From assembly GCA_963921345.3 (NCBI GenBank), contig OZ001228.1:670536-702535 (forward strand): a stretch of DNA of 32,000 nucleotides, in the 5' to 3' direction. Shown piece by piece: positions 9,335 through 26,455 of this stretch (within the stretch, counting starts at the first letter, position 1; each line of letters begins with the position of its first letter). The stretch comes from Rhizobiaceae bacterium. GTDB lineage: Bacteria; Pseudomonadota; Alphaproteobacteria; Rhizobiales; Rhizobiaceae. The position numbers and the translations under genes were made by a program. Below the pieces are notes generated by a model. It was not told where the DNA came from. It saw only the letters and a program-made list of their open reading frames with translations, and searched no databases.

Positions 9335-9340
9335 CGCGCC

Positions 9341-10915
9341 ATGGATACCAGGGACACCGAGATCCCCAAACGCCCCGATACCGAAGAACAGACCGCGCCG
9401 CAGCTGACCGCGCGGCTGGGCGGCCTCGGCGTCTGGGGCCAGACCGCCGGCTGGCTGGAGGGCCTGGGATCGGGCCTTGCCGGAACGGCCGGCGGCTTCA
9501 CGGCGGGAGCGTTTGGCGACAATGCCGCGATCGACGCCGCCGAGATCGCGCTCACCGACAGCAAGGTATCGGCCGTGCTGGGTCAGCGCATCGACGGGCT
9601 GCTGGCGGCGCCGCTGATGATCGAGCCCGCCAGCGACACCCCGCTGGACGTGGCGGCCGCCGACGATCTGCGCGCGCAGTTGCAGGCCATCGACATGAAC
9701 CGCGTCAGCCGCGCGCTCCTGCACGCGATCTGGTACGGCTACGCCCTCAGCGAGTGCCTGTGGGCGATCGACGGCCGGCGGGTGCGGCTCGTCGACATCC
9801 GCAGCCGCGATCCGCGCCTCATCCGCTACGACTGGACCACGCTGGAACCGCTGTTGGTGACGCGCGGCCAGCCCGGCGGCATCAACCTGCCGCCGGCCAA
9901 ATACATCCTGCATCGCAACCCGCCGCGCCATGGCGGGCAGCCCTTCGGGCTCGGCGCCGCGCACTGGTGCATCTGGCCGGTCTGGCTCAAGCGGCAGGCG
10001 ATGCGCATGTGGTCGGTGGCGCTGGAGAAGTTCGGCACGCCGACGCTGGTGGGCAAACACTTGCGCGATGCCCCCAAAAGCCAGGTGGACGCGTTGCTGG
10101 CCACGATGGCCGCGGCGATCAGCGCCAGTTGCATCGCCCTTCCCGACGACCAGGACGTGCAGATCCTGGCCGCCGCGAAATCCGGCACATCGGGCGGCTC
10201 GGGTGGTTCCGGCGGCGGCGATTTCAAGGCCATGGTCGCCGCCCTCGACCGCATGATCGCAGAGGCCGTCGTCGGCCAGCACGCAACCTCCGAAATCGGC
10301 CAGCACGTGGGCACCGCGCAGGTCCAGAACGAAACACTCCAGGCGCTGATCGCCAGCGACGAACACAGGCTCTCCGAATGCCTGCGCTCCACCGTGGCGA
10401 CATGGCTCACCGCCTGGAACTTCCCGGGCGCCGCCGTCCCGCGCCTGCGACGCGACACCGCGCCGCCGGAGGACCTGGAAGCCCGCGCCCGACGCGACCT
10501 CTATATCGCAAAGGCGTCCGGCCGAAGACCTGCGGCCGACTATGTCGAGGAGGTCTATGGCGGCACATGGGAAGAGGCCGCACCCGACCCCGGTGCGGAC
10601 CCCGCCAGGTTCGCGGCGGCCGCCGCTCCGACCGACGCAATCACCGGCCTCGTCAATCACCTCATCGGCGAGGACATCGCGCTCGAGGCCGCCGCCGCAA
10701 CCGTGCTGCCCGTCGAAGAGGCCATCGCCGGGGCGACATCGCTTCAGGACCTGCGCACCCGGCTCGACCGCATCGCACAGGCACCACCGCCGGACGCTCT
10801 GACACAGCTCTACGCCCGCGCCGACTTCATCGCGGGCATGGCCGGAAACGCCGGCGTTCCGCTGGGCCATGCGTCGGGAGGACCCGACGGTGATGAAGAC
10901 GATCCGCAGACCTGA
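9341..10915 (+). CDS. portal protein (Mu gp29-like, DUF935 type)
   Basis: 524 aa ORF directly after TerL. Size and position fit; internal region resembles DUF935 portals. Confidence 0.75.
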   Translation: MDTRDTEIPKRPDTEEQTAPQLTARLGGLGVWGQTAGWLEGLGSGLAGTAGGFTAGAFGDNAAIDAAEIALTDSKVSAVLGQRIDGLLAAPLMIEPASDTPLDVAAADDLRAQLQAIDMNRVSRALLHAIWYGYALSECLWAIDGRRVRLVDIRSRDPRLIRYDWTTLEPLLVTRGQPGGINLPPAKYILHRNPPRHGGQPFGLGAAHWCIWPVWLKRQAMRMWSVALEKFGTPTLVGKHLRDAPKSQVDALLATMAAAISASCIALPDDQDVQILAAAKSGTSGGSGGSGGGDFKAMVAALDRMIAEAVVGQHATSEIGQHVGTAQVQNETLQALIASDEHRLSECLRSTVATWLTAWNFPGAAVPRLRRDTAPPEDLEARARRDLYIAKASGRRPAADYVEEVYGGTWEEAAPDPGADPARFAAAAAPTDAITGLVNHLIGEDIALEAAAATVLPVEEAIAGATSLQDLRTRLDRIAQAPPPDALTQLYARADFIAGMAGNAGVPLGHASGGPDGDEDDPQT

Positions 10916-12288
10916 TGCCTGATCCGATTGATCTCAGCCCCCCGGTGAAGGCCATCGGCCTCGATCCCCAGGAGGCGATTGAATTCTTCCGCTCCAAAGG
11001 CTACGCACCGCCCGAAAGCCGGTTTTCCTATCGCGACTGGTTCGGCGCATCACACGCCCGCGGCTTCGTCGTCGCCAAGGCCATGCAGGACGATCTGCTC
11101 GCAACCATCCGTGAGGCCGTCGATGACAGCCTTGCAAAAGGCCTGACCCTGGACAACTTCAACGACACGCTCATCCCCAAGCTCAAGGCCGCCGGCTGGT
11201 GGGGCCAGAAGACCATGCGCGATCCGCTCACAGGCGAAATGCGAACCGTCCAGCTCGGCTCCAGGCGCCGCCTCGCCGTCATCTTCGACACGAACCTGAG
11301 AACCTCATACGCCGCCGGCAAATGGACCCGCATCCAGCGTACGAAGGACCTGCTGCCCTACCTGCTCTATACACAGCTCCAGAGGGTCACCAAGCGCGAG
11401 GCGCACACACGCTTCCACCGCCTGGTCCTGCCCGCCGATCATCCGCTGTGGGCCACCCACTATCCACCCAACGGATATTACTGCGCCTGCACCGTGCGCC
11501 AGATGAGCCGGACCATGCTGGACAACGAGGGGATCGCCGTCTCGGCCGAACCGCCGATCAAGTACAAGACCTGGACCGATCCCCGAACCGGCCGACGGCT
11601 GCGGGTGCCCGAAGGCATCACTCCGGGCTTCGACACCAATCCCGGAGCCACCTTTCTCGCCGACCAAGGACGCCATGACAGCATCGCGGGTGACCTCACC
11701 CCGGAAGCCCGCGGAGCCGAACTGGGACTGATCCACGAAGCCCGAAGCCGGGGGCTCAGAACCGGCAGCCGCCATCTCGCCGCGATGGATAACGACATGC
11801 CGAGCGGTTGGATCGACGGAGGATCACAACGCCCGCTGCCCGATGACACGCTCAAGGTCCGGCTCGCCGATCCCGCCGCAAGCATCGCGCTGATCCGAAA
11901 CCAGCCGGCATCGCAGGGCCTGTCGTCCGCCGACCTGCAAGACCTCGAAACATGGCCAGGCCTTTCCCGCACCGTCGCCGTCGCCCACGACGGATCCCTC
12001 CACAGGGCAAGCCTGCGAGCCGAAACACCGCAGCCCGGCCTCGCCGCCGCGACCGCATCACTGCTGAATATCGCCCGCCAGAAGATCCGCTCCATGAGCG
12101 AGCCTGGAACCGACGACCGCGTCATCGAGACGCTCGCCATCCTCGCCACTGCACGAACGCTCGATCGCGCCGGACTGATCGACTACGCATGGACCCTCGC
12201 AGGCGGCAGCAAGCTGATGCTCGACAACTTCGGCACAAGCCGCATGGACAGTCTGGTCGCCGAAATGGCCGCCAGCCTCACGCCCTGA
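10915..12288 (+). CDS. MuF-like head morphogenesis protein (Mu gp30 family)
   Basis: HTRFHRLVLPADHPLWATHYPPNGYYCACTVRQMS is the characteristic Phage_Mu_F core. Follows the portal gene with a TGATG overlap. Confidence 0.8.
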   Translation: MPDPIDLSPPVKAIGLDPQEAIEFFRSKGYAPPESRFSYRDWFGASHARGFVVAKAMQDDLLATIREAVDDSLAKGLTLDNFNDTLIPKLKAAGWWGQKTMRDPLTGEMRTVQLGSRRRLAVIFDTNLRTSYAAGKWTRIQRTKDLLPYLLYTQLQRVTKREAHTRFHRLVLPADHPLWATHYPPNGYYCACTVRQMSRTMLDNEGIAVSAEPPIKYKTWTDPRTGRRLRVPEGITPGFDTNPGATFLADQGRHDSIAGDLTPEARGAELGLIHEARSRGLRTGSRHLAAMDNDMPSGWIDGGSQRPLPDDTLKVRLADPAASIALIRNQPASQGLSSADLQDLETWPGLSRTVAVAHDGSLHRASLRAETPQPGLAAATASLLNIARQKIRSMSEPGTDDRVIETLAILATARTLDRAGLIDYAWTLAGGSKLMLDNFGTSRMDSLVAEMAASLTP

Positions 12289-12319
12289 ACAAGGAAGAAT
12301 ACCGGCGCGATTTTACAGG

Positions 12320-12489
12320 CCGTTTAACACCCTCGAAAACGCAGGAAAAAACACCGTTTAAACGACCTTCAGGCAAGCCGATCCGCCGGGATTGAGCAAA
12401 TCACCGTCGCATGGCCGTTTCCAGACCGCGCCCTCCAATCGGCAAGATACTACCCGCAGACCCCCTACGTTACCGCCGTTTCGGTACTC
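12320..12489 (+). repeat. four direct CCGTTT(N3-5)AC motifs in the non-coding spacer
   Basis: CCGTTTAACACC (12320), CCGTTTAAACGACC (12354), CCGTTTCCAGACC (12415), CCGTTTCGGTACTC (12476). The last two spacings are both 61 bp. Confidence 0.6.
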
Positions 12490-12490
12490 T

Positions 12491-12530
12491 CATCCGGCTT
12501 CATCCGGGAACTTCCGGCTTCTTCCGGTTT
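12491..12530 (+). repeat. 4 x 10-bp tandem repeat, consensus CWTCCGGNTT
   Basis: CATCCGGCTT CATCCGGGAA CTTCCGGCTT CTTCCGGTTT, read directly from the sequence. One helical turn per unit. Confidence 0.85.
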
Positions 12531-15500
12531 GAGCATTATTTATGTCGTCCTACACTTCCTGCTGGCGGACGATCCAGGTGCCGGCAAGACGATCATGGCC
12601 GGCCTTTTGATGAAGGAACTGATCGCGCGCGGCGATCTAGAACGCTGCCTGATTGTCGCACCGGGCAGCCTGGTCGAACAGTGGCAGGACGAACTCGGCG
12701 AGAAGTTCGCGCTCGAATTCGACATCCTGACGCGCGACATGATCGAGACCGCACGATCCGGCAATGTGTTCAAGGACCGCGACCGCCTGATCGTCCGGCT
12801 CGATGTGCTGGCGCGCAACGAAGAGCTTCAGGACAAACTGCTCGGATCGCCGGAATGGGACCTGATCATCTGCGACGAGGCGCACCGCATGTCGGCGACC
12901 TGGTTCGGCGGCGACGTCAAATACACCAAGCGCTACCAGGTCGGCCAGAAATTGGGGCGGATCTGCCGTCACCTGCTGTTGATGTCGGCAACGCCACACA
13001 ACGGCAAGGAAGAGGACTTCCAGTTGTTCATGGCGCTGCTTGACGGCGACCGGTTCGAGAGTCGTTTCCGCGACGGCGTACACTATGCCGACACCGAAGA
13101 CATGATGCGCCGGCTCACCAAGGAGGAACTGCTGCGCTTCGATGGACGACCGCTGTTTCCCGAGCGGCGCGCCTATACGGTGAAATACGATCTGTCGCCG
13201 AAGGAAGCGGCACTATATGCGGCGGTGACGGATTATGTCCGCACCGAGATGAACCGGGTACAGCGCTTTGCCGCGACAGACGGCAGGAAGCTCAACACGG
13301 TGGGCTTCGCCCTGCAGATCCTGCAGCGGCGCCTCGCCTCTTCGCCTGCTGCCATCCACAGGTCGCTGATGCGCCGGCGCGAGCGCCTTGAGAGCGAACT
13401 CGCCGAAGCGCGGCTCGCCGCAAGGGGCGGCCGGGCCTCGATCAATGCGACCGATGTCGGCGACGACATCCTGCGCAATATCGATGAATATGGCCAGGAG
13501 GATGTCGACGACCTGGAGGAACGGATATCGACCGGCGCGACCACGGCGGAAACGATTGAGCAACTGGCGATCGAGGTCGAGACGCTGAAGTATCTCGAAG
13601 CAGAGGCCCTGGGCGTGCTGGCTTCCGGCGAGGACACGAAATGGCGGCAACTCGACCGCATCCTCGATGACAACCTGATGGTTGATGGCGACGGCAATCG
13701 CCGCAAGCTGATCATCTTCACCGAACCCAAGGACACGCTGCACTATCTGTGCGACAAGGTGCGCGCCCGGCTGGGCAGGCCGGAGGCCGTCGATGTCATT
13801 CATGGCGCGGTGACGCGCGAAGAGCGCCGCAAGGTGATCGAACGCTTCATGCAGGACCGCGACCTGCTGGTGCTGATCGCCAACGATGCCGCCGGCGAAG
13901 GCGTCAACCTGCAGCGCGGCCATCTGATGGTGAACTACGACCTGCCGTGGAACCCGAACAGGATCGAACAGCGCTTCGGACGCATCCACCGGATCGGCCA
14001 GACCGAGGTCTGCCACCTGTGGAACATCGTTGCGGCGGACACGCGCGAAGGCGAGGTCTATGGCCGCCTGCTGGAAAAGCTGGAGGCCGCACGCGCTGCC
14101 CTTGGCGGGCGCGTCTACGATGTGCTCGGCGAGTTGTTCGAAGGTGTCGCGCTGAAGGACCTTCTGATCGAAGCCATCCTCTACGGTGAAAGGGATGAAG
14201 TGCGCGAGCGCCTGTTCCGACAGGTCGACGGCGTGGTCGATCAGACTCACCTGCTCGACCTTCTCAAGCGCCGCGCGCTGACGAATGACACCATGCCGCA
14301 GGCGAAGGTCCGGAAACTGCGCCTCGACATGGAACGGGCGGAAGCGCAGCGGCTTCAGCCGCATCACGTGCAGAGCTTCTTTGTCGAGGCGTTTCAGCGG
14401 CTGGGCGGCCGGTTGAAGGCGCGGGAGGATGGCCGCTGGGAGATCACGCATGTCCCCGTGCGCCTTCGCGAACGCGACCGGCAGATCGGAACCGGTGCTC
14501 CGGTCCAGAAGAAATACGAGCGCATCTGCTTCGACAAGGCCGGGATCAACCGGCAACCGGTCGCGGCCTTCATCTGTCCGGGTCACCCGCTGCTTGAAGC
14601 GGTCATCAGCATCGCGCGCGAAGATCACGGCCACCTGATGAAGCAGGGCGCGGTCATGATCGACGATGCCGACGACAGCATGGCACTGTCGGCCATCTTC
14701 CTCATCGAACACAGCGTGCAGGACGGCTGTCGTACCGGCGCAGACAGGCCGCACATTGTTTCGCAAAGGCTGCAATTCGCGGCGATTGCTGAAACCGGTG
14801 TGACGACCGATGCCGGGATCGCGCCGCACCTCAACCTGCGTCCGGCCGATGCGGACGAGATCGCACACGCCGAAGACCTGCTCGATCAGGACTGGCTGAC
14901 GTCCGACCTGGAAAAACCCGCGCTGGAATTCGCGACCGTGGAATTGGCGCAGCGGCATGTTGCGGAGGTGAAGGCACGGCGCCTTCCCGAGATCGACAAG
15001 GTCGCGGCCGAGGTCAAGGCGCGGCTTGGCAGGGAAATCAATCACTGGGACAAACGCGCCGCCGAGCTTCGGGAAGAGGAAAAGGCCGGCAAGAAGACCC
15101 GCCTCAACTGGCAGAACGCCGAGCGCCGTGCCGAGGAACTTGCCGAACGGCTGAAGCGCCGGCAGGCACAGCTTGACGCGGAACGGCTGATCACCGCGCA
15201 ACCGCCCCGTGTGCGCGGCGGTATGGTCGTCATTCCGCGCGGCCTGCTCGAAGAACGTCGTGGCGATGCGGTGAAAGACGGCATGGCACCGCCGGGATTT
15301 GCCGAAGACCCGGAAGCGCGCAGCAGGGTAGAGGTCGCCGCCATGGATGCTGTGATGGAGGCGGAAAAGGCGCTAGGCAACCATCCGGAAGATGTTTCGG
15401 CGCAGAAGGTCGGCTATGACATCGCCTCCTTCGATCCGACGGCTGACCGCATGCGGTTCATCGAAGTCAAGGGCCGGGTCGAAGGGGCGGATACGGTGAT

Positions 15501-15699
15501 GATCACGCGCCAGGAGGTCATCACCTCGCTGCACGAACCCGACCGGTTCATCCTCGCCATCGTGAGTGTAAAGGACAGTTTTGCGCATGCCCCGCGCTAT
15601 GTGCGCGGACCGCTCGTGGAGCGCGAGCCGTCGTTTTTGGAGACCGCGATACAATTCAGCCTGAAACGCCTGCTGGAGCGGGCGGAGGAGCCGGAATGA
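12529..15699 (+). CDS. SNF2/DEAH-type helicase with C-terminal DUF3883 domain, apparently 5'-truncated
   Basis: Walker A DDPGAGKT sits about 15 codons from the TTG start. DEAH (ICDEAHRM), SATPHNG, helicase-C motifs ANDAAGEGVNLQ and QRFGRIHRIGQ. C-terminal GYDIASFDPTADRMRFIEVKGR...RFILAIV is the DUF3883 signature. No ATG or SD at the 5' end, and the upstream frame is unrelated. Confidence 0.8.
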   Translation: MSIIYVVLHFLLADDPGAGKTIMAGLLMKELIARGDLERCLIVAPGSLVEQWQDELGEKFALEFDILTRDMIETARSGNVFKDRDRLIVRLDVLARNEELQDKLLGSPEWDLIICDEAHRMSATWFGGDVKYTKRYQVGQKLGRICRHLLLMSATPHNGKEEDFQLFMALLDGDRFESRFRDGVHYADTEDMMRRLTKEELLRFDGRPLFPERRAYTVKYDLSPKEAALYAAVTDYVRTEMNRVQRFAATDGRKLNTVGFALQILQRRLASSPAAIHRSLMRRRERLESELAEARLAARGGRASINATDVGDDILRNIDEYGQEDVDDLEERISTGATTAETIEQLAIEVETLKYLEAEALGVLASGEDTKWRQLDRILDDNLMVDGDGNRRKLIIFTEPKDTLHYLCDKVRARLGRPEAVDVIHGAVTREERRKVIERFMQDRDLLVLIANDAAGEGVNLQRGHLMVNYDLPWNPNRIEQRFGRIHRIGQTEVCHLWNIVAADTREGEVYGRLLEKLEAARAALGGRVYDVLGELFEGVALKDLLIEAILYGERDEVRERLFRQVDGVVDQTHLLDLLKRRALTNDTMPQAKVRKLRLDMERAEAQRLQPHHVQSFFVEAFQRLGGRLKAREDGRWEITHVPVRLRERDRQIGTGAPVQKKYERICFDKAGINRQPVAAFICPGHPLLEAVISIAREDHGHLMKQGAVMIDDADDSMALSAIFLIEHSVQDGCRTGADRPHIVSQRLQFAAIAETGVTTDAGIAPHLNLRPADADEIAHAEDLLDQDWLTSDLEKPALEFATVELAQRHVAEVKARRLPEIDKVAAEVKARLGREINHWDKRAAELREEEKAGKKTRLNWQNAERRAEELAERLKRRQAQLDAERLITAQPPRVRGGMVVIPRGLLEERRGDAVKDGMAPPGFAEDPEARSRVEVAAMDAVMEAEKALGNHPEDVSAQKVGYDIASFDPTADRMRFIEVKGRVEGADTVMITRQEVITSLHEPDRFILAIVSVKDSFAHAPRYVRGPLVEREPSFLETAIQFSLKRLLERAEEPE
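12542..12554 (+). repeat. TG..CA-type terminal inverted-repeat-like sequence (ATGTCGTCCTACA)
   Basis: Its reverse complement TGTAGGACGACAT matches 11/13 the left terminus TGTAGGGCGACAG of the IS21-family element at 27640. It lies exactly where helicase homology begins. Confidence 0.45.
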
Positions 15700-17165
15700 G
15701 CAAGACAAGAGAGACCGCTTCGGACAAGCGCAAGCAGCCAAGAAGTATCAGGATCAAGGTGAGCGATTTCGGGCCGATCTCCAAGGGCGAAGTTGACCTT
15801 CGTCCACTCACCGTGTTCGCCGGCCCGAGCAACACTGGCAAGTCCTGGCTGGCGACGCTGATCTATGTAATGGATCAATATCTCAGCGACACTACGAAAT
15901 CTGTATTCAGATGGCCACTGTACCCCAAAAAGGACCCGTCGGTTCGATTTCCCGAGAAGCCCGCCATTTGGCTTGAAAGCATCGGCAACAAAGAAGCGGT
16001 GCCGCTGACCAACAGTGACCGTAAAATACTTGCAACAGCCCTCAAGGCCGATCGTCTCGAATTTGGAACGCAACTCTTGCGCAGCTTTGGACTGACTGAA
16101 CTGCGTCACCTTTCACGCGAGGGCAGCAACCGTACCGCAAGATTCAATTTCTTCGATGAAGATGCTACCCGTTCCCCCGCAACCCGTTATCAATTTGCCA
16201 TTACCGATAATGACAATGTCGCACTCCGAGTGGACATCGCCAATCAATTGAAGCTTGGACTGTTCGAGAATTCGCAACGGCTTTTGGCCGATATCAGTCA
16301 TGACATCCAAACAGATGACGAAGATACCAGGCAAGTGATGCGATTTATTCATCACATTTTTTCGTCCGAAAACAGCAAATTTGCGTTCTATCTGCCGGCG
16401 GACCGTGGCGGGGTGATGCATGCGCACCATACGGTTGTCAGCGCACTTATACAGAATGCATCGCGTGGAGGCCTCATTCGCAATGCACCGTTGCCGATGC
16501 TATCGGGTATACTGGGCGATTTTCTGCAAAACCTTCTAAATGTTGTGCAGAACCAGCAAGGTGGCATGTCCTCCTGGCTTGCTCTCAGGGGCAAAGAACT
16601 GGACGGCGCACGAGCCGACCGTCTAGAGAACAATGTCCTTAACGGGAGGGTCGAGGTTGAAAAATCAAGTGTCGATTACCCGCGCTTTACCTACATTCCA
16701 GATGGGTGGGACAGGCCGCTTTCCCTTGTGGGTGTCTCGTCCATGGTCTCGGAACTGGCCCCGGTGTCGCTTTATCTGCGCCATCATGTCCGGGAGGGTG
16801 ATCTTCTGATTCTCGAGGAACCAGAAGCGCATCTGCATCCCGCCATGCAGGTTGCATTCCTCCGCGAAATCGCGGAATGGGTCAGGCAGGGAATTCGCGT
16901 CATCCTGACGACCCACAGCGAATGGGTGCTTGAGGAACTTGCGAATATCGTGGCAACCGGTGAATCCGATTGCCCTGAAGGACTTCCCAATGAGGATGTC
17001 GGACTTTGGCTGTTCGAAACGATTGACGCCAAAAATCCAGACAAGGGTTCGACAGTGCGTGAAATCCTTTGGGACCCGGATGGTGTCGGATACGATACCG
17101 GCTTTGAAGATGTCGCAATGGCGCTGCACAACGAATGGGTCAATCTCGCGGGAGCTGAGGATTGA
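15696..17165 (+). CDS. ABC/SMC-like AAA ATPase (AAA_15/AAA_21 type)
   Basis: ATG overlaps the helicase stop (ATGA), with a GGAGGAG RBS. Walker A FAGPSNTGKS, Walker B LLILEEPEAHLHP, then ILTTHS. Sampled lines 45-53% GC against 65-70% in flanking genes. Confidence 0.8.
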   Translation: MSKTRETASDKRKQPRSIRIKVSDFGPISKGEVDLRPLTVFAGPSNTGKSWLATLIYVMDQYLSDTTKSVFRWPLYPKKDPSVRFPEKPAIWLESIGNKEAVPLTNSDRKILATALKADRLEFGTQLLRSFGLTELRHLSREGSNRTARFNFFDEDATRSPATRYQFAITDNDNVALRVDIANQLKLGLFENSQRLLADISHDIQTDDEDTRQVMRFIHHIFSSENSKFAFYLPADRGGVMHAHHTVVSALIQNASRGGLIRNAPLPMLSGILGDFLQNLLNVVQNQQGGMSSWLALRGKELDGARADRLENNVLNGRVEVEKSSVDYPRFTYIPDGWDRPLSLVGVSSMVSELAPVSLYLRHHVREGDLLILEEPEAHLHPAMQVAFLREIAEWVRQGIRVILTTHSEWVLEELANIVATGESDCPEGLPNEDVGLWLFETIDAKNPDKGSTVREILWDPDGVGYDTGFEDVAMALHNEWVNLAGAED

Positions 17166-17176
17166 AAGGCGGCTTG

Positions 17177-17629
17177 ATGAAAACTGTGAGGCAGGAGTTC
17201 AACAAATGCTGCCTCGTAACAAATTGCAGAAGAGACGGCTGCTCCGTCGATCTCAGAGGGATTGCTCATCCTTACCTACTTGTTGATTTCGACAGTCGTT
17301 GTGCTCCTTTCAAGCAGCATGAAACACGCTGTGACTACCTGTTGATTGGGGAAGGCAATCCCGCGCTGGTGGTGCCTATTGAACTGACTCGGGGCCGAAA
17401 AAAACAAAATATCTTGGTTCGGCAATTACAGGCTGGTGCCGAAGCGGCAGAAAGTGTTCTGCCTGACAATTTGGCCGTGCAATTTCAGCCCGTTCTTGTG
17501 GGTAAGTCAAAAAAATACAACCTGTCCAGCGGGAGAGAGCCGACAGTCAGCTTTCGAGGCAAGTCGGAGGGCATCTTAAAGATCGATTGCGGCGGCGTGC
17601 TGAAAGATGCATTGAGGAAAGCGAAATGA
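17177..17629 (+). CDS. hypothetical 150-aa protein; Cys cluster plus a weak nuclease-like D...ExT/R motif
   Basis: ATG 17177 (residue 6 of ORF 17162..17629) with AAAGG 8 nt upstream. CCLVTNCRRDGC near the N-terminus. CDYLLIGEGNPALVVPIELTRGRKK (D at 17333, E at 17381). Stop overlaps the methyltransferase ATG. AT-rich like the preceding ATPase gene. Confidence 0.6.
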   Translation: MKTVRQEFNKCCLVTNCRRDGCSVDLRGIAHPYLLVDFDSRCAPFKQHETRCDYLLIGEGNPALVVPIELTRGRKKQNILVRQLQAGAEAAESVLPDNLAVQFQPVLVGKSKKYNLSSGREPTVSFRGKSEGILKIDCGGVLKDALRKAK

Positions 17630-20550
17630 CGCATAGCCGCAAGAAAAAGCTGATCGAAGTCGCGATACCGCTGGATGTCATCAACGCTGCATCGGCGCGT
17701 GAGAAGTCGATTCGTCACGGGCATCCCTCGACGCTGCATCTGTGGTGGGCGCGTCGGCCATTGGCGGCTTGCCGGGCGGTGCTGTTCGCGCAGCTTGTCG
17801 ATGATCCTTCGGAGCATGTCGAGGACCTGCTCGGCGATCCCGATCTTCGGAAAGCGGCCGAAAAGGAACTGGCCGAAAGACTGGAGAAGCGCGGGAAGGA
17901 AAAGCAAGACGGTAGCGTCAATGCGGCGGATGACAGGCCGGTGACGCTGGAGGATGTGATCGTTGAACGCGAACGCCGACGCCTGTTCGCGATCATCGGG
18001 GATCTGGTGCGGTGGGAGAACTCGACGAACGAAGAAGTGCTTGAGCGCGCCCGAGCCGAAATCCGTCGAAGCTGCGGTGGCGAAATGCCGCCGGTCTACG
18101 ATCCATTCTCCGGCGGCGGGTCGATTCCACTGGAAGCGCAGCGCTTCGGACTGCCTGCTTTTGGCTCCGATCTCAATCCGGTGGCGGTGATGATCGGCAA
18201 GGCGATGATCGAAATCCCGCCGAAATTCAGGGACCAGCCGCCGGTGCATACGGACGTACGGGAGCGGCAGTTCTACCGCAATGCCGAAGGGCTGGCGGAG
18301 GACGTCAAGCACTATGGCGCGTGGATGCGCGAGCAGGCCTGGTCTCGCATCGGTCACCTCTACCCGGATGTTGAACTGCCGGAGGACGAGGGTGGCGAAG
18401 AGGCGACGGTGATCGCCTGGATCTGGGCGCGCACGGTACCGAGCCCGGACCCGGCTTTTTCGGATGTGCATGTGCCGATTGCCTCCAGCTTCCTGCTGAG
18501 TTCCAAGCCGGGCAAGAAAGGAGCCTGGATTGAACCGGTGGTTGACCGGCAGGCCAGGACGATTGCCTACCGCATCAGACGCGGCGGCACAAAGGACGAG
18601 ATTGCCAAGGTTAGAGAGGGGACCAAGGCCGGGCGCGGTGCGAATTTCCGTTGCCTGATGTCCGGCACGGCGATCACGCCGGATTATGTCAAGAGCAAAG
18701 GCAAGTCCGGACAGATGGGTCAAACGCTCATGGCCATTGTTGCCGAGGGCAAAACTGGCAGGGCCTACGTGGCACCGTCGGTCGAGCATGAGACAATCGC
18801 GTTTTCTGCCGAACCCAAGTGGAAGCCGGACACAAACCTGCCGGATGATCCACGGAATTTCTGGACGGTGGATTACGGCATGAAGACCTTCGGCGATCTT
18901 TTCACCGACCGTCAGTTGGTTGCGTTGAACACGTTCAGCGACTTGGTGCATGATGTGCGGGCGCAGGTGGAAGCGGACGCGCGTGAGGCGGGCCTGTCCT
19001 TTGATGACATACCACTGCGTGACGGCGGCAGCGGCGCAAAGGCCTACGCCGAGGCGGTGAGCGTGTATCTGGGGTTTGCGATTACCCGTCTGGCAGACCG
19101 CGGCAGCACTATTTGCGGCTGGGATTCTGGATATACGAAGATTCGCAACACATTTGGACGCCAAGCCATCCCCATGACCTGGGATTTTGCAGAAGGCAAT
19201 CCATTTTCAGATTCAACAGGCAATTGGAAATCATGTGTTGCTTGGATTTGGAAGGTTTTGGACGCGCTGGTTCCAGTTGGTTCTGGAAACGAGCGCCAGC
19301 ATGACGCCCAAACGGTCAACTATCCCGCCGATACCGTTATTTCGACCGACCCGCCCTACTACGACAATATCGGCTACGCTGATCTGTCCGATTTCTTCTT
19401 CTGCTGGATGAAGCCAGTCATCCGCCCCGTATATCCTGATCTGTTTGGAATATTGGCCGCACCCAAAGCGGAGGAACTGGTCGCCACTCCTTACCGCCAC
19501 GGTGGCAGGGAGGCAGCAGAAGCTTTCTTCCTTGATGGAATGAGCCGTGCCATCGGCAACATGGCGCGGCAGGCCAGCGATTTGTTTCCGGCCACGATCT
19601 ACTACGCCTTCAAGCAGAGCGAGGTCGACCGGGAAGGCATGAGTTCCACGGGATGGGCGACGTTCCTGCAAGCGGTGATCGATGCCGGATTTGCGGTCGT
19701 TGGCACATGGCCGATGCGAACGGAGATGGCAAACCGGATGATTGCGTCAGGCACCAACGCCCTTGCCAACTCCGTCGTCCTCGTCTGCCGCAAGAAGGCG
19801 GCCGATGCCGAGGTGATCACCCGCACCGAGTTCACCCGCGCCCTGAAGCGCGAATTACCGTCGGCGATTGGCGCACTTCGAACGGCCAACATCGCGCCCG
19901 CCGACATGCCGCAATCGGCGATCGGACCGGGCATGGGTATCTTCTCGCGCCACGCGGCCGTGCTGGAATCCGACGACAGCCCGATGCCGATGAAGACCGC
20001 GCTACAGCTCATCAATCACGAACTCGACGCGTTCCTGAACGATGTTCAGGGCGAATTCGATGCCGACACCCGTTTTGCCATCACCTGGTTCGAGCAAAAT
20101 GGCATGACCGCCAGCGATTACGGCACGGCAAACAACCTCGCCACGGCCCGCGGCCTTTCGGTCGAGAGTGTCAAACATGCCGGCATCGTCGAAAGTCGGG
20201 CTGGCAAGGTGCGCATTCTGAAGCGCGACGAATTGCCGGTCGAATGGGACCCGGCGACCGACACGCACCTTGCGGTCTGGAAGTGCTGCCAATACCTCAT
20301 CAGGACACTCGAAAACGATGGCGAACAGGCCACGGCCATGCTCTTGAAGAGGATCGGTGCGGACAAGGCTGATGCCGCCAAGGAACTCGCCTACTGCCTC
20401 TATGATATATGCGCCAACAAACGCGGAGACGCGAATGAAGCGACGTCTTACAACGCGCTGATCGCGGACTGGCCGGAACTGACACGGCAGGCGGCCAGGA
20501 TCCATGAAACCGATCTCGACGGCGACCCGCAGACCGCGATGAATTTGTGA
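17626..20550 (+). CDS. DUF1156-domain DNA methyltransferase (gamma-type motif order, DPPY)
   Basis: ATG 17626 overlaps the upstream TGA. The N-terminus KKLIEVAIPLDVINAASAREKSIRHGHPSTLHLWWARRPLAACRAV is the DUF1156 signature. AdoMet motif DPFSGGGS...GSDLNPVAV. Catalytic DPPY at 19348-19359. Confidence 0.85.
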   Translation: MTHSRKKKLIEVAIPLDVINAASAREKSIRHGHPSTLHLWWARRPLAACRAVLFAQLVDDPSEHVEDLLGDPDLRKAAEKELAERLEKRGKEKQDGSVNAADDRPVTLEDVIVERERRRLFAIIGDLVRWENSTNEEVLERARAEIRRSCGGEMPPVYDPFSGGGSIPLEAQRFGLPAFGSDLNPVAVMIGKAMIEIPPKFRDQPPVHTDVRERQFYRNAEGLAEDVKHYGAWMREQAWSRIGHLYPDVELPEDEGGEEATVIAWIWARTVPSPDPAFSDVHVPIASSFLLSSKPGKKGAWIEPVVDRQARTIAYRIRRGGTKDEIAKVREGTKAGRGANFRCLMSGTAITPDYVKSKGKSGQMGQTLMAIVAEGKTGRAYVAPSVEHETIAFSAEPKWKPDTNLPDDPRNFWTVDYGMKTFGDLFTDRQLVALNTFSDLVHDVRAQVEADAREAGLSFDDIPLRDGGSGAKAYAEAVSVYLGFAITRLADRGSTICGWDSGYTKIRNTFGRQAIPMTWDFAEGNPFSDSTGNWKSCVAWIWKVLDALVPVGSGNERQHDAQTVNYPADTVISTDPPYYDNIGYADLSDFFFCWMKPVIRPVYPDLFGILAAPKAEELVATPYRHGGREAAEAFFLDGMSRAIGNMARQASDLFPATIYYAFKQSEVDREGMSSTGWATFLQAVIDAGFAVVGTWPMRTEMANRMIASGTNALANSVVLVCRKKAADAEVITRTEFTRALKRELPSAIGALRTANIAPADMPQSAIGPGMGIFSRHAAVLESDDSPMPMKTALQLINHELDAFLNDVQGEFDADTRFAITWFEQNGMTASDYGTANNLATARGLSVESVKHAGIVESRAGKVRILKRDELPVEWDPATDTHLAVWKCCQYLIRTLENDGEQATAMLLKRIGADKADAAKELAYCLYDICANKRGDANEATSYNALIADWPELTRQAARIHETDLDGDPQTAMNL

Positions 20551-20563
20551 AGGACCGCGACGC

Positions 20564-23500
20564 ATGGCCAAGAGTACACGTCAATATGTCTTCGAGGGGA
20601 TGGAACTTTTGCCGGAAGCGCTCATTGCGTTCGTCGAAAAGCGCCTTGAAAGTGCGGTGAAGGGCCACTGGCAGGTGGAGGTCGCGGAGCGGGTCTCTGG
20701 CCTTCGGGTGACCGGTGGCACCGTTTCCTGGGACCAGCAGGGCTTGCTGAGGGCCATGATGGCGTTCTGGAAAGATTGCTTCGCTGCCGTGCTCGGTCAT
20801 CAGGAACGGTCCCATGTTTCCGAACTGCTCGATGTCAGGAACCGGCTGTCGCACAACGAGACCTTCACCTATGACGACGCGGAACGGGCGCTCGACACGA
20901 TGCGTCGGTTGATGGAGGCGATCAGTGCCGGCGAGACCGCCGCGAAGATTGGCAAGATGCGCGACACGATCCTGCGCACCAAATATGCGGAGTTGCAGCG
21001 CAACGAGGAACGCCGCAAGACAAGACGGCTGAACCTTTCGGTGGAAACGGTTGCGGGTCTGCTGCCGTGGCGCGAGGTGGTGGAACCGCATCAGGATGTT
21101 GCGACCGGCGAGTTCCAGCAGGCCGAATTTGCTGCCGATCTTGGCAAGGTGCATGCGGGCAGCGCACCTTCGGAATATCAGAACCCGCAGGAATTCTTCA
21201 GCCGCACCTATCTGACCGAGGGATTGGGCACACTGCTTGCCGGCGCGGCCAGACGCCTGTCGGGGGCGGGCGGCGATCCTGTTGTTGACCTGCAGACCAA
21301 TTTCGGCGGCGGCAAGACGCACGCGATGCTGGCGCTTTACCATATGGCGGGCGGCACGCCGTCGGGGGATCTGCCCGGCCTCGATCAACTGCTTTCTGAT
21401 CAGGAACTCGAAGTCCCGGAAAAGATCAGCCGGGCTGTGCTCGTCGGCACGGCGCGCGGGCCGCATGACCCGGTCCGTGGCGATGATGGGCACGAGGTCC
21501 GCACGACCTGGGGCGAACTTGCCTGGCAACTCGGCGGCGCGGACGCCTATGGGATGATCTCCGACAATGACGCGAAGGGCATCGCGCCCGGTTCTAACCT
21601 GCTGGAGGCGATCTTCAGGAAATGCTCGCCCTGCCTGATTCTGATCGATGAATGGGTCGCCTATCTGCGGCAGATCTACAAGGTCGACGGCCTTCCGTCC
21701 GGCTCGTTCGACGCCAATCTGTCCTTCGTCCAGTCCCTGACGGAAGCCGTCAAGGCGAGCCCCGGCACGCTGCTCGTCGCCTCGCTGCCCGCCTCGCAGA
21801 TCGAGGTCGGCGGTGAAGGCGGACAGGAAGCACTGGTGCGACTGAAGCAGACGTTCAGCCGTGTGGAATCGTCATGGCGTCCGGCGTCGCAGGAAGAGAG
21901 CTACGAGATCGTCCGCCGCCGGCTGTTCAAGGACATTCCGGGCGACAGGCATCACCACAAGGACAACACGCTGAAGCAGTTCGCGAAGCTCTACCGGGAG
22001 AACGCCAACGATTTTCCGCAGGGCTGTGCGGACGAGGACTACCGGCGCAAGCTGGAAAAAGCCTACCCGATTCATCCAGAACTGTTCGACCAGTTGTACA
22101 CGGGTTGGGGATCGCTGGAGAAATTCCAGCGTACACGTGGCGTGCTGCGGCTGATGGCACAGGTCATTCACGAATTGTGGATGGGCAACGATCCCTCGGT
22201 GATGATCATGCCGGGCGGCGTGGCGGTCGGCTCGGCTAGGGTCGAACCGGAACTGCTGCACTATCTCGACGTGAACTGGCAATCGATCATCGCCGCCGAT
22301 GTCGACGGCGAGGCCGCGACACCCTACAGGATCGACCAGTCCGCCCCGAACCTGAACCGCTATTCGGCGACGAGGCGCGTGGCGCGCGCGGTGTTCATGG
22401 GTTCGGCCCCTACGCACCGGGAACAGAACCGGGGGCTTGACGACAGGCAGATCAACCTCGGCGTCATCCAACCGGGCGAGAAGACCGCCATTTTCGGCGA
22501 CGCTCTGCGCCGTCTGACCAACCAGGCGCGGTTCATGCACAGCGATATGGGGCGCACTTGGTATTCTACATCGCAAAGCCTCAATCGCCTGGCCGCCGAC
22601 CGGGCCGGGCAGATCGAGGAAGCGCTCGTGCTGATGGAAGTCGACAAGGCGTTGAAGACGTATATGGACGGGATCGGCGACCGCGGGCATTTCGATGCGG
22701 TACAGGTGGCACCGTCCTCATCGGCCGACATTCCTGACGAGGGGGGCGGCGTTCGCGCTGTGGTGCTCGGTGTTGCGCACCCCCATTCGGTCCGTGACGG
22801 GTCGGAGGCGCTGGTCGAAGCAAAGGATATCCTGATGCAGCGTGGTGCGACACAACGCGTCTACCGCAATACGCTGGTGTTCCTGGCCGCCGACGCCCGG
22901 CAGGTCGACAACCTCAAGGATGGCGTTCGCTCGGTACTGGCATGGAACGGGATCGTTCGCGACACGGAACGTCTTGACCTGACACAGAGCGGCAGCGCTC
23001 TCGCCAAGCAAAGGGCGCAGGAAGCGGACGAGACGGTCATCACACGTCTTCGCGAATGCTGGTGTTACCTCATCTATCCATATCAGGAGAACGCGCAGGC
23101 GGATGTCGAATGGACATCCGGCAAGGTTTCGACGCAGGATGGCCTGCTACACCGGTCCGGCAAGATGCTGGTGAGCGATAACACGCTGCTGCCGGAACTC
23201 GGTCCCCAGCGTCTCGATCGCGATCTGAAGCGCTATATCTGGAAAGACAAGCCGCACCTTTCGCTGAAGGAGTTATGGGACTATCTCAACCGCTATACCT
23301 ATCTGCCGCGATTGAAAGACCGCGAGGTTCTGGCAAGGGCCGTGCAGGCAGCCGTATCGGGCCTTTTACCCGGCCCGTTCGCCTATGCGCAAATGTGGGA
23401 CGAGGAAACGCAGACCTATTGCGGCCTCATCATCGACAATGCAATCGCCGCGCCTGTCGTGATTGACGACGACAGCGTGATCGTCGCGGCGGAAGTGGCG

Positions 23501-23857
23501 AAGCGCCACCGGCCCGAACCGGTGCCCGAAGGTGCCAATGCGGGGTTTGATGAGGAAGATGGCAAAGGCGGTTACCAATCTGCAACCACAGGCCCGGGCG
23601 ACCCGAAGGCCGGCCAGGAAGAACGCCTGCCGACGCGCTTTACCGGAACGGTGATGATCTCGTCCGAGCGGCCGGCCCGCGACATGAACAAGATCATCGA
23701 GGCGATTATCGACCAGTTGACGATGCTGCCCGGCAGCGAGGTAACCCTGACGCTGGAAATCGACGCGGAAGTTTCCGAAGGGCTCGACCGGTCGAAGGTC
23801 CGTACGCTGATCGAGAATGCTGGCACGCTCGGATTCAACGAAAAGTCGGTGCGGTAA
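20564..23857 (+). CDS. DUF499-type P-loop ATPase with N-terminal Swt1-like HEPN domain
   Basis: RNRLSH (Rx4H) at 20837-20854. Walker A NFGGGKTH (~21301-21324). Walker B LILIDEW. 1097 aa. Starts 13 nt after the methyltransferase stop, with an AAGGA RBS. Confidence 0.8.
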   Translation: MAKSTRQYVFEGMELLPEALIAFVEKRLESAVKGHWQVEVAERVSGLRVTGGTVSWDQQGLLRAMMAFWKDCFAAVLGHQERSHVSELLDVRNRLSHNETFTYDDAERALDTMRRLMEAISAGETAAKIGKMRDTILRTKYAELQRNEERRKTRRLNLSVETVAGLLPWREVVEPHQDVATGEFQQAEFAADLGKVHAGSAPSEYQNPQEFFSRTYLTEGLGTLLAGAARRLSGAGGDPVVDLQTNFGGGKTHAMLALYHMAGGTPSGDLPGLDQLLSDQELEVPEKISRAVLVGTARGPHDPVRGDDGHEVRTTWGELAWQLGGADAYGMISDNDAKGIAPGSNLLEAIFRKCSPCLILIDEWVAYLRQIYKVDGLPSGSFDANLSFVQSLTEAVKASPGTLLVASLPASQIEVGGEGGQEALVRLKQTFSRVESSWRPASQEESYEIVRRRLFKDIPGDRHHHKDNTLKQFAKLYRENANDFPQGCADEDYRRKLEKAYPIHPELFDQLYTGWGSLEKFQRTRGVLRLMAQVIHELWMGNDPSVMIMPGGVAVGSARVEPELLHYLDVNWQSIIAADVDGEAATPYRIDQSAPNLNRYSATRRVARAVFMGSAPTHREQNRGLDDRQINLGVIQPGEKTAIFGDALRRLTNQARFMHSDMGRTWYSTSQSLNRLAADRAGQIEEALVLMEVDKALKTYMDGIGDRGHFDAVQVAPSSSADIPDEGGGVRAVVLGVAHPHSVRDGSEALVEAKDILMQRGATQRVYRNTLVFLAADARQVDNLKDGVRSVLAWNGIVRDTERLDLTQSGSALAKQRAQEADETVITRLRECWCYLIYPYQENAQADVEWTSGKVSTQDGLLHRSGKMLVSDNTLLPELGPQRLDRDLKRYIWKDKPHLSLKELWDYLNRYTYLPRLKDREVLARAVQAAVSGLLPGPFAYAQMWDEETQTYCGLIIDNAIAAPVVIDDDSVIVAAEVAKRHRPEPVPEGANAGFDEEDGKGGYQSATTGPGDPKAGQEERLPTRFTGTVMISSERPARDMNKIIEAIIDQLTMLPGSEVTLTLEIDAEVSEGLDRSKVRTLIENAGTLGFNEKSVR

Positions 23858-23917: not shown

Positions 23918-25126
23918 ATGCAGGAATTGCTGACGGACCGTGAACTGGAAGCGCTTTTTCGCGACGGCGAGAGCGACAGGGTCGAGTTCAAGCGCAATGC
24001 GACCAATCTTGACAGGATCAGGCAGGCGGTCTGTGCGTTCGCCAACGATCTTGCCAACAATCGCGCACCCGGTGTGGTGTTTGTCGGCGCGGAGGATGAC
24101 GGCCGCTGCGTCGATCTGGACATCGGCGATGATCTTCTCAGGCGCCTTGCACAGATCAGGGACGATGGCAGCCTGACAGCTTTTCCGGGCATGGAAGTAC
24201 GCAAGGTCGTTCTTTCCGGCTGCAACATGGTGGTTATTGTCGTTCAGCCATCGGACAACCCGCCCGTGCGCTTCAACGGACGAACCTGGATCCGGGTCGG
24301 CCCGCGCCGGGCAATCGCGACGCCGGAAGAAGAAACGCGGCTTGTGGAAAAGCGCCGCTTCGCCAACCTCGCCTTCGACGCAAGGCCGGTGCCCGGCGCA
24401 ACCATAGACGATCTTGATCTGGATCGCTTCCGCTCGGAATACCTGCCGGCCCTTGTTTCCCATGACACCATTGCCCGGAACCGCAGGTCGGAAGCGCAAC
24501 AACTCCTGGCGCTGCGTCTCACCGGCAAGAACGGCGTTCCGACCGCCACGGCCATCCTCATGCTAGGCAAGTCTCCGCAGGATCATTTCCCGGGCGCGCA
24601 TATAGCATGGAGACGGGTGGACGGAACCGATGTGACGGGCGAGACAATCGACGAGAAAGTTCTGACTGGCACGATTGCAGATCAGCTTCGCAGGATCGAC
24701 GACATCATCGATGCAGCCAATGCCCACGGCGTGGAGATGGGCCGGTCGACCCATGCGAGGACCGCCGACTATCCGCTGGAAGCACTCCAGCAGTTGGTAC
24801 GCAATGCGGTGATGCATCGCACCTATGAGGGAACAGCCGCGCCCGTGCGCGTGACCATGTATTCGGATCGGATCGAGATATTGAACCCGGGCGGCCCGTT
24901 CGGGGCCGTGACGCCCGAGACGTTTGGATTGCCCGGCGTCACCGACTATCGCAATCCCACGCTTTCGGAGGCACTGAAGGGTTACGGATTCGTCGAGCGG
25001 TTCGGCCAGGGTTTGGAAATCGCCCGTCGCTCCCTTGAAGCAAACGGCCACGCGGCGCCGGAATTCGACTTCGAGCCACAAGTTGCCCCGGCCTGGACCA
25101 ATGTGACGGTGAGGAGGCATCCATGA
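23918..25126 (+). CDS. AlbA_2/Schlafen-like domain protein with HATPase_c_4-like C-terminal half (COG2865 type)
   Basis: N-terminus ESDRVEFKRNATNLDRIRQAVCAFANDLANNRAPGVVFVGAEDDG is typical of AlbA_2. Later ALQQLVRNAVMHRTYE...IEILNPGG resembles the ATPase-like module of this family. I see no C-terminal HTH. Confidence 0.7.
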   Translation: MQELLTDRELEALFRDGESDRVEFKRNATNLDRIRQAVCAFANDLANNRAPGVVFVGAEDDGRCVDLDIGDDLLRRLAQIRDDGSLTAFPGMEVRKVVLSGCNMVVIVVQPSDNPPVRFNGRTWIRVGPRRAIATPEEETRLVEKRRFANLAFDARPVPGATIDDLDLDRFRSEYLPALVSHDTIARNRRSEAQQLLALRLTGKNGVPTATAILMLGKSPQDHFPGAHIAWRRVDGTDVTGETIDEKVLTGTIADQLRRIDDIIDAANAHGVEMGRSTHARTADYPLEALQQLVRNAVMHRTYEGTAAPVRVTMYSDRIEILNPGGPFGAVTPETFGLPGVTDYRNPTLSEALKGYGFVERFGQGLEIARRSLEANGHAAPEFDFEPQVAPAWTNVTVRRHP

Positions 25127-26133
25127 AAACGATTGCATTCTTCAACAACAAGGGCGGCGTCGGCAAGACATCACTGCTTTATCACCTGGCGCACATGTTC
25201 GCCCTCGAGGGTTTGCGGGTCGTCGCGGCCGATCTTGATCCGCAGTCAAACCTGTCGGGCATGTTCCTTCAGGACCCGCGCATCGAGGACCTATGGTCGG
25301 CCGGGGGATCGGGGACCGTGCACTCCGCCATGCAACCGCTCATCGCCGGAACCGGCGATCTGCTGGAGGTAACCCCCGAGATCATCACCGATCGCCTTGC
25401 CCTGCTTGCGGGCGACCTGGGGCTTTCGGAGGTCGAGGACGAACTCTCGAACCAGTGGCCGCGTTGCCTGAACGGCGAAGAACGCGCTTTTCGGGTGACA
25501 GCGGCATTCGACCGCATGATACGGACCGCAGGCCGGGGTGCGGAAGCCGATATTGCGCTGATCGATGTCGGGCCTAACCTCGGCGCGATCAACCGCTGTG
25601 CGCTTGTTTCGGCGGACCATGTCGTCATTCCGATCGGAGCGGACCTGTTCTCGATCCGGGGCTTGCAGAATGTTGGACCGAAACTGCGGGAATGGCGGCG
25701 TCAATGGGGTCAGCGCCTTGATGCTCAACCGGGGGGACTGAATTTCGAATTGCCACCGGGCGACATGGAACCGATCGGCTATGTCGTATCAAGGTATTCG
25801 TCCTTCGGCCGTGGTGCCGCGAAATCGTTCCAGAGATGGCTGGATCGTGTGCCGCGCGTTTATGCTGAGGGCGTCTTGCAGGATGAAGTCACAACCAGCG
25901 ACATCGCTGCGGACACGAACCGGCTTGCACAACTCAAGGACTATCGGTCGCTGATGCCGATGGCGCAGGAAGCACGCAAACCCATGTTCATGCTCAAGCC
26001 GGCGGATGGGGCGATCGGCGGACACCAGACTGCAGTTCAGGATTGCTACAGAGCCTTCCAGGCACTGGCGGCAAAAATATGCGACCGCATTGCGCTGGAT
26101 CCTATCGACCGGTCTTCAGCATCATCGGGATAG
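25123..26133 (+). CDS. ParA/Soj-superfamily ATPase, long form (336 aa)
   Basis: ATG overlaps the upstream stop (ATGA). Deviant Walker A NNKGGVGKTS, DLDPQSNLS, Walker B-like IALIDVGP. About 100 aa C-terminal extension. No parB-like gene or obvious parS nearby. Confidence 0.75.
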   Translation: MKTIAFFNNKGGVGKTSLLYHLAHMFALEGLRVVAADLDPQSNLSGMFLQDPRIEDLWSAGGSGTVHSAMQPLIAGTGDLLEVTPEIITDRLALLAGDLGLSEVEDELSNQWPRCLNGEERAFRVTAAFDRMIRTAGRGAEADIALIDVGPNLGAINRCALVSADHVVIPIGADLFSIRGLQNVGPKLREWRRQWGQRLDAQPGGLNFELPPGDMEPIGYVVSRYSSFGRGAAKSFQRWLDRVPRVYAEGVLQDEVTTSDIAADTNRLAQLKDYRSLMPMAQEARKPMFMLKPADGAIGGHQTAVQDCYRAFQALAAKICDRIALDPIDRSSASSG

Positions 26134-26455
26134 CGATAATGGCGCGGCAAGCATGGAGACCGGGCGGGGTCGCGATGCAACCGTCATTGGCAACAATCCG
26201 AACAGGCGATGCCCGACCGGCGCTTGCGCCAGACGGTCTCCACAGCCGTCAGCACGACCGTGCTGATTGGCAGTGTGGTGGCGATTTCATCCGGCGACCG
26301 GAACCCGATCAGCGCTGATAACGATAGCTCCCGAGCAAGTGGCAAGATGTATGCTGTCATTGAATAGCCACGATCACAATTGGAGTGTTATCCAACAATT
26401 GATGGGGCGGTAAAAAGTCGATTCCACGGAGCATTGCTGTGCTTTATGATGAGGC

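Follow-up and report, generated by a model that had tools for sequence, protein, structure and literature searches.

A probable three-module defense locus built around a truncated Hma operon in a Rhizobiaceae bacterium

The stretch analyzed here, 32,000 nucleotides (nt) of contig OZ001228.1 from a Rhizobiaceae bacterium (assembly GCA_963921345.3, forward-strand positions 670,536 to 702,535; hereafter the window, to whose positions all coordinates refer), contains an array of seven coupled genes on the plus strand. The array opens with a truncated hmaA open reading frame (ORF; 12529-15699, homologous to other hmaA genes over 12556-15699) for a SNF2 helicase with a NOV_C/DUF3883 PD-(D/E)xK nuclease. 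It continues with genes for a 489-amino-acid (aa) ABC-type ATPase (15696-17165; Pfam AAA_15/AAA_21), a 150-aa predicted PD-(D/E)xK-like protein (17177-17629), the 974-aa DUF1156 N6-adenine-type DNA methyltransferase HmaB (17626-20550) and the 1097-aa HEPN-DUF499 ATPase HmaC (20564-23857), the last two recognized by both PADLOC and Pfam. A 402-aa Schlafen/histidine-kinase-like protein (23918-25126; Pfam SLFN_AlbA_2 and HATPase_c_4) and a 336-aa ParA/MinD-like ATPase with the motif KGGVGKT (25123-26133; Pfam AAA_31/CbiA) complete the array. The locus very probably represents a three-module defense composite, in which the Hma system, an embedded two-gene cassette and a Schlafen/ParA pair lie between a truncated Mu-like prophage and a nest of insertion sequences (IS).

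A first-pass annotation, made from the sequence alone, had described the first five genes as one translationally coupled operon ending at 23857. Its five co-directional ORFs and their junctions lie exactly where it placed them: hmaA and the ATPase gene share an ATGA overlap (15696-15699), 8 nt upstream of which lies GGAGGA, the ATG of the small protein (17177) comes shortly after the stop of the ATPase gene (17165), a second ATGA overlap (17626-17629) joins the small protein gene to hmaB, and a 13-nt gap separates the hmaB stop (20550) from the hmaC ATG (20564). While the coupling of these five genes stands, the annotation included neither the truncation of hmaA nor the two further genes, and the coupled array runs past 23857; a 60-nt gap separates hmaC from the Schlafen gene, which overlaps the ParA-like gene by 4 nt. 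The mechanically called ORFs of gene 3 and hmaB open at TTG 17162 and TTG 17587, respectively, with ATG 17177 and ATG 17626 as the likelier starts. Apart from hmaA, all genes of the array (hmaB, hmaC and both cassettes, six in total) are full length and keep their motifs. Promoter and terminator scans yielded nothing above background, and an Rfam scan of the window returned no RNA family.

We compared the encoded proteins with profiles from Pfam, PADLOC 2.0.0, NCBIfam and PHROGs and modeled the 150-aa protein with AlphaFold2 for comparison with the PDB by Foldseek; comparison loci carry L-numbers, L001 being the Bradyrhizobium barranii plasmid pB323S2c. Based on these profile matches, genes 1, 4 and 5 are identified as hmaA, hmaB and hmaC of the published Hma system, with a HEPN-fused HmaC. 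The name Hma (for helicase, methylase and ATPase) goes back to Payne et al. 2021, who based it on 1,638 operons of three genes each from 26 phyla (PMC8565338); the system was renamed the Type-1 DUF499-centered BREX-related (BR) system in a 2026 comparative study in Nucleic Acids Research, which credits its first notice to a 2013 HEPN survey (PMC12839542). This is the module that the first-pass annotation had described as a computationally predicted trio of DUF1156, DUF499 and SNF2-DUF3883 proteins, likened to restriction-modification (R-M) and BREX systems (PMC8565338, PMC12839542). Its domain calls (DUF3883, ABC ATPase, DUF1156, HEPN and DUF499) are all borne out by Pfam, and the DPPY, HEPN Rx4H and Walker A motifs that it listed are present.

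The best PADLOC match of gene 1 is HmaA (1395 bits, E = 0), covering profile positions 123-1172 of 1176, and Pfam recognizes SNF2-rel_dom, Helicase_C and NOV_C (DUF3883; 73 bits). The protein keeps motif I (DDPGAGKT), DEAH, motif VI (QRFGRIHRIGQ) and the nuclease motif FIEVKGR, with the nuclease residues D964 and E979-V-K981 present. Gene 4 is best matched by HmaB (1229 bits, E = 0; Pfam DUF1156 95.5 bits), has motif I FSGGGS at 161 and motif IV DPPY at 575, and is identical over its full length to the HmaB proteins of L012 and L001 at 76% and 64% of positions, respectively. For gene 5 the best match is HmaC (950 bits, E = 4.5e-286), restricted to aa 166-1094; upstream of this stretch, Pfam places HEPN_Swt1 (92.6 bits, aa 12-121), in addition to DUF499 (112 bits). 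Its motifs include the HEPN RNRLSH at 92-97 (R92-x4-H97), GGGKTH at 248 and LILIDE at 358, and it is 87% identical to HmaC of L012. A HEPN fusion at the N terminus of the DUF499 ATPase is common, occurring in 1370 of 2446 Type-1 BR taxa (PMC12839542).

As the PADLOC definition of Hma specifies, the locus has one homolog each of HmaA, HmaB and HmaC on one strand, with hmaA and hmaB separated by two genes (the limit is three) and hmaB directly followed by hmaC. The curated set of Payne et al. 2024 admits no hma pseudogene, and this locus falls outside it, as hmaA lacks its first 124 codons. The locus likewise has the components of a Type-1 BR system, namely a DUF499 STAND/ORC-like AAA+ ATPase with HEPN, a DUF1156 methyltransferase and a Swi2/Snf2 helicase with PD-(D/E)xK nuclease. 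The Type-1 BR helicase is described as running from Tudor through Swi2/Snf2 and an inactive restriction endonuclease (REase) to an active PD-(D/E)xK REase (PMC12839542); its N-terminal TUDOR domain is lacking here, where the corresponding region is deleted, and is present in L001 and L014. The window thus resembles Hma in the canonical order hmaA, hmaB, hmaC, in the SNF2 and NOV_C domains, in the DUF1156 protein with DPPY, in the DUF499 protein with the common HEPN fusion, and in the use of the hmaA-hmaB slot, a known insertion hotspot, but differs in lacking hmaA codons 1-124 (the Tudor-like domain and Q-motif) and in being welded to a prophage fragment.

The helicase also resembles BrxHII of Type 3 BREX and DrmD of DISARM (PADLOC 283-363 bits), and PMC12839542 regards the methylase as a homolog of BrxX and the ATPase as one of BrxC. 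Unlike those systems, the locus lacks PglZ, BrxA, BrxB, BrxL, DrmB and DrmC: among ten proteins scanned with PADLOC, no match to PglZ or other Brx core models was found, only the helicase resembling BrxHI/BrxHII, and the NCBIfam DrmD score of the helicase (360 bits) is below the 610-bit cut-off. Membership in BREX, DISARM, Dpd or Zorya can be ruled out, as the helicase alone resembles their components.

The two genes between hmaA and hmaB lie outside this system. The ATPase has a Walker A motif GPSNTGKS (43-50), a Walker B motif LLILEEPE and an H-loop TTH, and belongs to a family of more than 4,200 homologs at E <= 1e-10. Its best PADLOC matches are PD-T4-4_A (E = 1.6e-28, with the best stretch spanning aa 313-420 only) and PDC-M47A (E = 6.8e-25). 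In homologous loci the 150-aa gene always lies directly 3' of an AAA_15/AAA_21 ATPase gene encoding about 500 aa. The 150-aa protein itself has no family in Pfam, NCBIfam or PHROGs. A profile search against 1.84 billion representatives placed it in a family of 1,537 clusters, nearly all of them single-domain proteins of 150-165 aa. An initial word-index search had found 16 relatives, suggestive of a rare family; the 1,537 clusters refute this, and the low count reflects the limit of the word index.

The conserved positions of the 150-aa family are C17, C22, D39, R51-C52-D53-Y54, P67, E69-L70, G73, Q83-L84 and C138, four of which are cysteines. In the AlphaFold2 model (predicted local distance difference test score, pLDDT, 88.6), D53 heads one strand and E69-L-x71 ends the next, a placement that suggests a PD-(D/E)xK layout. 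Foldseek matches of the model in the PDB are weak (best E = 0.017, none below 0.001), and the list is mostly comprised of restriction-endonuclease folds, including BsmI, SgrAI, Nt.BspD6I, EcoO109I, McrC, Cas4 and EndoMS. Based on the motif, this model and the weak fold matches, the 150-aa protein is predicted to be a PD-(D/E)xK-like nuclease. Most of the family has a lysine in the ExK slot (position 71); the window copy has T there, and it and its nearest relatives have T or S at this position and a lysine 4-6 residues later, so the nuclease activity of the window copy is uncertain.

Comparison with PADLOC models relates the pair to known nuclease-ATPase systems. Among 55 members of the 150-aa family, 27 match PDC-M47B (best E = 1.4e-7), one matches PD-T4-4_B (E = 0.0028) and one matches Shedu SduA; the window protein matches PDC-M47B weakly (E = 0.007) and does not match PD-T4-4_B. 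Like HEC-01/02/03, PDC-M47 and PD-T4-4, the pair consists of an ABC ATPase gene encoding about 490 aa followed by a small effector gene; like HEC-01/02/03 and PDC-M47, it sits between hma genes; and like PD-T4-4 and HEC-02, which has a NERD protein, its partner is a predicted PD-(D/E)xK-type nuclease. It differs from PDC-M47 and PD-T4-4 in that its A component matches mainly over the C-terminal 100 residues, while its B component reaches only E = 0.007, has no Pfam family and carries T71. PD-T4-4 combines a PD-(D/E)xK nuclease with a P-loop nucleoside triphosphatase (NTPase) and builds higher-order complexes (10.1101/2025.07.10.664194); PDC-M47 is so far a candidate system in PADLOC. From these similarities we infer that the pair is a distant PDC-M47/PD-T4-4-like nuclease-NTPase system.

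The first-pass annotation had proposed one five-gene defense system, containing no canonical restriction endonuclease, whose genes should co-occur in other genomes. The profile searches assign genes 1, 4 and 5 to HmaA, HmaB and HmaC, but leave genes 2 and 3 outside Hma. The genomic neighborhoods also speak against this proposal. In L003-L011, the ATPase/small-protein pair occurs amid housekeeping genes in at least four different contexts with no hma gene nearby, its neighbors including recJ, ligA, polyphosphate kinase and glycosyltransferase genes. L002, L012 and L014 carry the pair in the slot that separates hmaA from hmaB, and in L013 it adjoins a mere NOV_C remnant. In L001, the nearest Hma locus on a plasmid, the hmaA-hmaB slot holds a different insert (L001 12120-17726) with three small hypothetical genes and a gene for a 1407-aa ATPase. 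Composition differs as well: the cassette has a GC content of 50-53% and a third-codon-position GC content (GC3) of 54-57% (53% and 57% in the ATPase gene) versus 60-63% and 71-79% in the hma genes. Relative to L014, nucleotide identity is 91.5% in hmaA, 91.8% at the start of hmaB and 89.7% from hmaB through to the ParA-like gene, whereas it drops to 72% in the ATPase core, and the small protein shares 41% of its amino acids; relative to L012, the ATPase and small protein are 59% and 32% identical. As the pair occurs elsewhere without hma genes, is swapped for another insert in L001, has a low GC3 and diverges rapidly, the five genes are not one evolutionary unit. These comparisons identify the ATPase and 150-aa genes as an apparently autonomous two-gene cassette, acquired independently of Hma.

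Such an arrangement is well documented. Embedded genes were found in 62.7% of 1,485 Hma systems, pairs with an ABC ATPase being the commonest family, and seven of nine Hma-embedded candidates assayed were active alone (Payne et al. 2024, 10.1101/2024.01.29.577857); Liu et al. likewise reported the Hma insertion hotspot. Some of the comparison loci have features of their own. In L001, a gene for a WYL-domain regulator lies just upstream of hmaA. L014 and L012, Hma relatives from one metagenome, show decay as well. In L014, a transposase insertion (L014 13327-14128) interrupts hmaB and hmaC is split. In L012, hmaA (L012 4480-7847) was called in pieces, for which errors in low-coverage long reads are an alternative explanation.

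The two genes that follow hmaC appear, from their distribution, to be a second mobile two-gene cassette, appended to Hma here rather than embedded in it. With Pfam scores of 47 bits for SLFN_AlbA_2 and 62.7 bits for HATPase_c_4, the Schlafen protein has the domains that define pSlfn-HisKinase, and Schlafen-HisKinase(-HTH) is the commonest pSlfn architecture (Nat Microbiol 2026, PMC13056530). Schlafen-HisK-wHTH proteins are tied to BREX/BR loci in at least 1017 taxa as a frequent accessory (PMC12839542). We scanned 185,579 species genomes with the ParA-like protein and examined the neighborhoods of the best 80 of 382 relatives. In 77 of these 80 loci, which span more than 15 phyla, a Schlafen gene lies directly upstream of the ParA-like gene, and no other neighbor of the pair is conserved across the 80. 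About 8-10 loci have the pair within Hma, between hmaA and hmaB, as in Rohdeia mirabilis (L047), and about nine have it between the type III mod and res genes (the L018 type). In most other loci the pair stands alone, as in L015, where metG, tatD and a metallo-beta-lactamase-fold gene flank it on one side and a transporter gene on the other. In L012 and L014 the two genes follow hmaC, as they do in the window.

The pair thus resembles published pSlfn-HisKinase (PMC13056530) in combining AlbA_2/SLFN with HATPase_c_4 and in its association with R-M-like and BREX-like loci, but differs in that a ParA/MinD-like ATPase gene follows, here and in 77 of the 80 relatives. None of the PADLOC 2.0.0 models covers the pair, and in the papers searched on Schlafen and on BREX/BR (PMC13056530 and PMC12839542) a ParA partner of Schlafen does not come up. 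It is possible, if doubtful, that both guest cassettes are defense systems in their own right and that the Schlafen/histidine kinase protein forms an obligate pair with the ParA/MinD-like ATPase, whose part might be that of a sensor bound to DNA or of a switch gating the tRNase.

Unlike the other genes, hmaA is incomplete. Intact HmaA has 1165 aa in L001 and 1171 aa in L014; the window protein is 79% identical to the 1165-aa Bradyrhizobium protein, in an alignment that begins at residue 124 of the latter, as does the alignment to the 1171-aa homolog. In intact HmaA, an N-terminal domain and, ahead of motif I, the Q-motif PLPHQ lie within the first 123 residues. At the nucleotide level, L001, L002, L012 and L014 all become homologous to the window at nt 12555/12556, the hmaA frame is open back only to TTG 12529, where there is no Shine-Dalgarno sequence, and a search across the window did not find the missing 5' part. 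From these alignments, a rearrangement appears to have cost hmaA its promoter and its first 124 codons, and with them the Tudor-like domain and the Q-motif. As this part of the gene is missing, the principal Hma effector is most likely disabled in this copy, with the methylase, HmaC and both cassettes intact.

In published experiments, HmaA of Halomonas meridiana by itself guards E. coli against phage T4, and this protection depends on helicase motif VI and on the metal-dependent NOV_C nickase (PMC11232893). The DUF3883 domain, one of the candidate effectors named in the first-pass annotation, is the part of the system that has been shown experimentally to act as an effector. Based on the literature and on the domains present, an intact system would operate as follows: HmaB would mark host DNA, HmaC would assemble on DNA and scan it, and HmaA would translocate along foreign DNA and then nick it, with the HEPN domain and the Schlafen protein possibly serving as RNase back-ups. 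In the embedded cassette, the ABC ATPase may sense or gate, and the small PD-(D/E)xK-like protein may cut; this cassette would probably act independently and share only operon transcription with Hma.

The opposite view of the cassette, in which all five proteins form one integrated R-M-like machine and Hma depends on the pair as subunits, one possibility being that they are its real restriction effector, would account for the ATGA overlaps that flank the ATPase/small-protein pair on both ends and for the equal arrangement in L002, L012 and L014. We regard this as very unlikely, since the pair is found without Hma in at least four unrelated contexts, many Hma loci, both L001 and others in the literature, have no insert or a different one, the GC3 of the pair is far below that of the hma genes, the pair diverges much faster than the hma genes that flank it, and HmaA alone gives defense (PMC11232893). 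Other alternatives concern the consequence of the hmaA truncation. The truncated protein could still be a working effector, with translation starting at TTG 12529 and transcripts reading through from the late genes of the prophage, which run in the same direction: the frame is open from 12529, the protein keeps helicase motifs I to VI as well as its nuclease motif, and the Mu F gene upstream is co-directional. However, 124 residues are gone, including the PHQ Q-motif just before motif I, and TTG 12529 has no Shine-Dalgarno sequence, which makes this quite unlikely; the scan also found no promoter-like site, which is weak evidence.

Alternatively, the loss may be compensated, such that a methylation-linked defense based on HmaB and HmaC now uses the HEPN domain, the PD-(D/E)xK-like protein and the Schlafen protein. 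All genes but hmaA are full length with intact motifs, and there is a published parallel, as 21% of Type-1 BR loci lack the helicase-nuclease fusion and neighboring nucleases are proposed to compensate (PMC12839542). Yet L014, with an intact hmaA, already has the same cassettes, which were therefore not recruited as replacements. There is also no evidence of HmaC signaling to these proteins, and the promoter region of the operon was lost along with the 5' end of hmaA; compensation thus seems unlikely.

Several points nonetheless weigh against the three-module composite with a disabled HmaA and independent cassettes that we favor. The R-M-like role of HmaB is unproven, and in the sole experiment on HmaB marking, T4 passaged on an HmaB-expressing host was unchanged in its sensitivity (PMC11232893). 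Truncated HmaA may still be produced, be it through initiation at TTG 12529 or through transcripts that enter from the prophage. The ATGA overlaps at both boundaries of the embedded cassette leave room for cross-talk among the seven coupled genes. The full gene order common to three loci comes from one metagenome sample and from close relatives, so that this synteny is not independent. Finally, the nuclease function of the 150-aa protein is deduced from a motif, a confident model and weak fold matches, and its copy here carries T71.

With respect to what is already published, descriptions exist of Hma and its HEPN fusion, of the embedding of other genes, of ABC ATPase pairs and of the Schlafen accessory. 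The window is in this sense an ordinary further Hma locus with a known embedded architecture, in which the main effector gene is broken. It provides a natural example of an effector lost with the methylase retained. It also makes cassette turnover visible, the hma genes being about 90% identical between relatives and the cassette diverged to 41-59% protein identity, and offers a divergent addition to the PDC-M47/PD-T4-4-like group of nuclease-ABC ATPase systems. The sole point that we did not find described in the Schlafen and BREX/BR papers searched is that Schlafen-HisK is almost always paired with a ParA-like ATPase, and the widespread Schlafen and ParA-like pair can be nominated for a defense role by "guilt by embedding".

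To the left of the array lies a fragment of a Mu-like transposable prophage (381-12288, plus strand), recognized by Pfam and PHROGs matches and by the gene order of Pelagibaca phage vB_PeaS-P1. It encodes, all on the plus strand, a MuB-like ATPase (381-1508), gp27 (7203-7859), a large terminase (7367-9334), a Mu portal protein (9341-10915) and a Mu F head protein (10915-12288). The fragment also holds a GcrA-like gene and a DNA methyltransferase-like ORF (5448-6206; PHROG 67). The prophage ends after Mu F, and about 19 kb of protease, capsid and tail genes, found beyond Mu F in a complete relative, are absent.

Between the prophage and hmaA is a non-coding rearrangement joint (12289-12555; 267 bp, GC 56%, no codon bias). 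A 10-bp unit, TCATCCGGCT, is repeated in tandem in 3.8 copies at 12490-12527, immediately left of the hmaA breakpoint, and two CCGTTTAA(A)C motifs occur at about 12322 and 12353. These repeats and motifs may be sites where a protein bound the end of an element that has since been lost. The joint has no match in plasmid or phage collections and no Rfam family. The joint was also considered as a possible right end of the Mu-like prophage, in which case hmaA would have been a target of its transposition. Similarity of 12289-12554 to the ends of Pelagibaca phage vB_PeaS-P1 is not beyond that of shuffled controls, and the left end of the prophage lies outside the window.

For several minus-strand ORFs at the right end of the window (30306-32000; 204, 170, 83 and 71 aa), neither Pfam nor PHROGs gave a match. 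The right boundary of the locus is formed by an IS5-family element (26392-30494, plus strand), identified by Pfam and by terminal inverted repeats of 32 nt each (26392-26423 and 30463-30494). The transposase gene of this element (26456-27817 and 29821-30333, plus strand) is split by an IS21-type insertion (27899-29796, plus strand) with istA at 27899-29020 and istB at 29017-29796. Homology to L014 stops at 26225, between the end of the ParA-like gene and the first inverted repeat of the IS5-family element.

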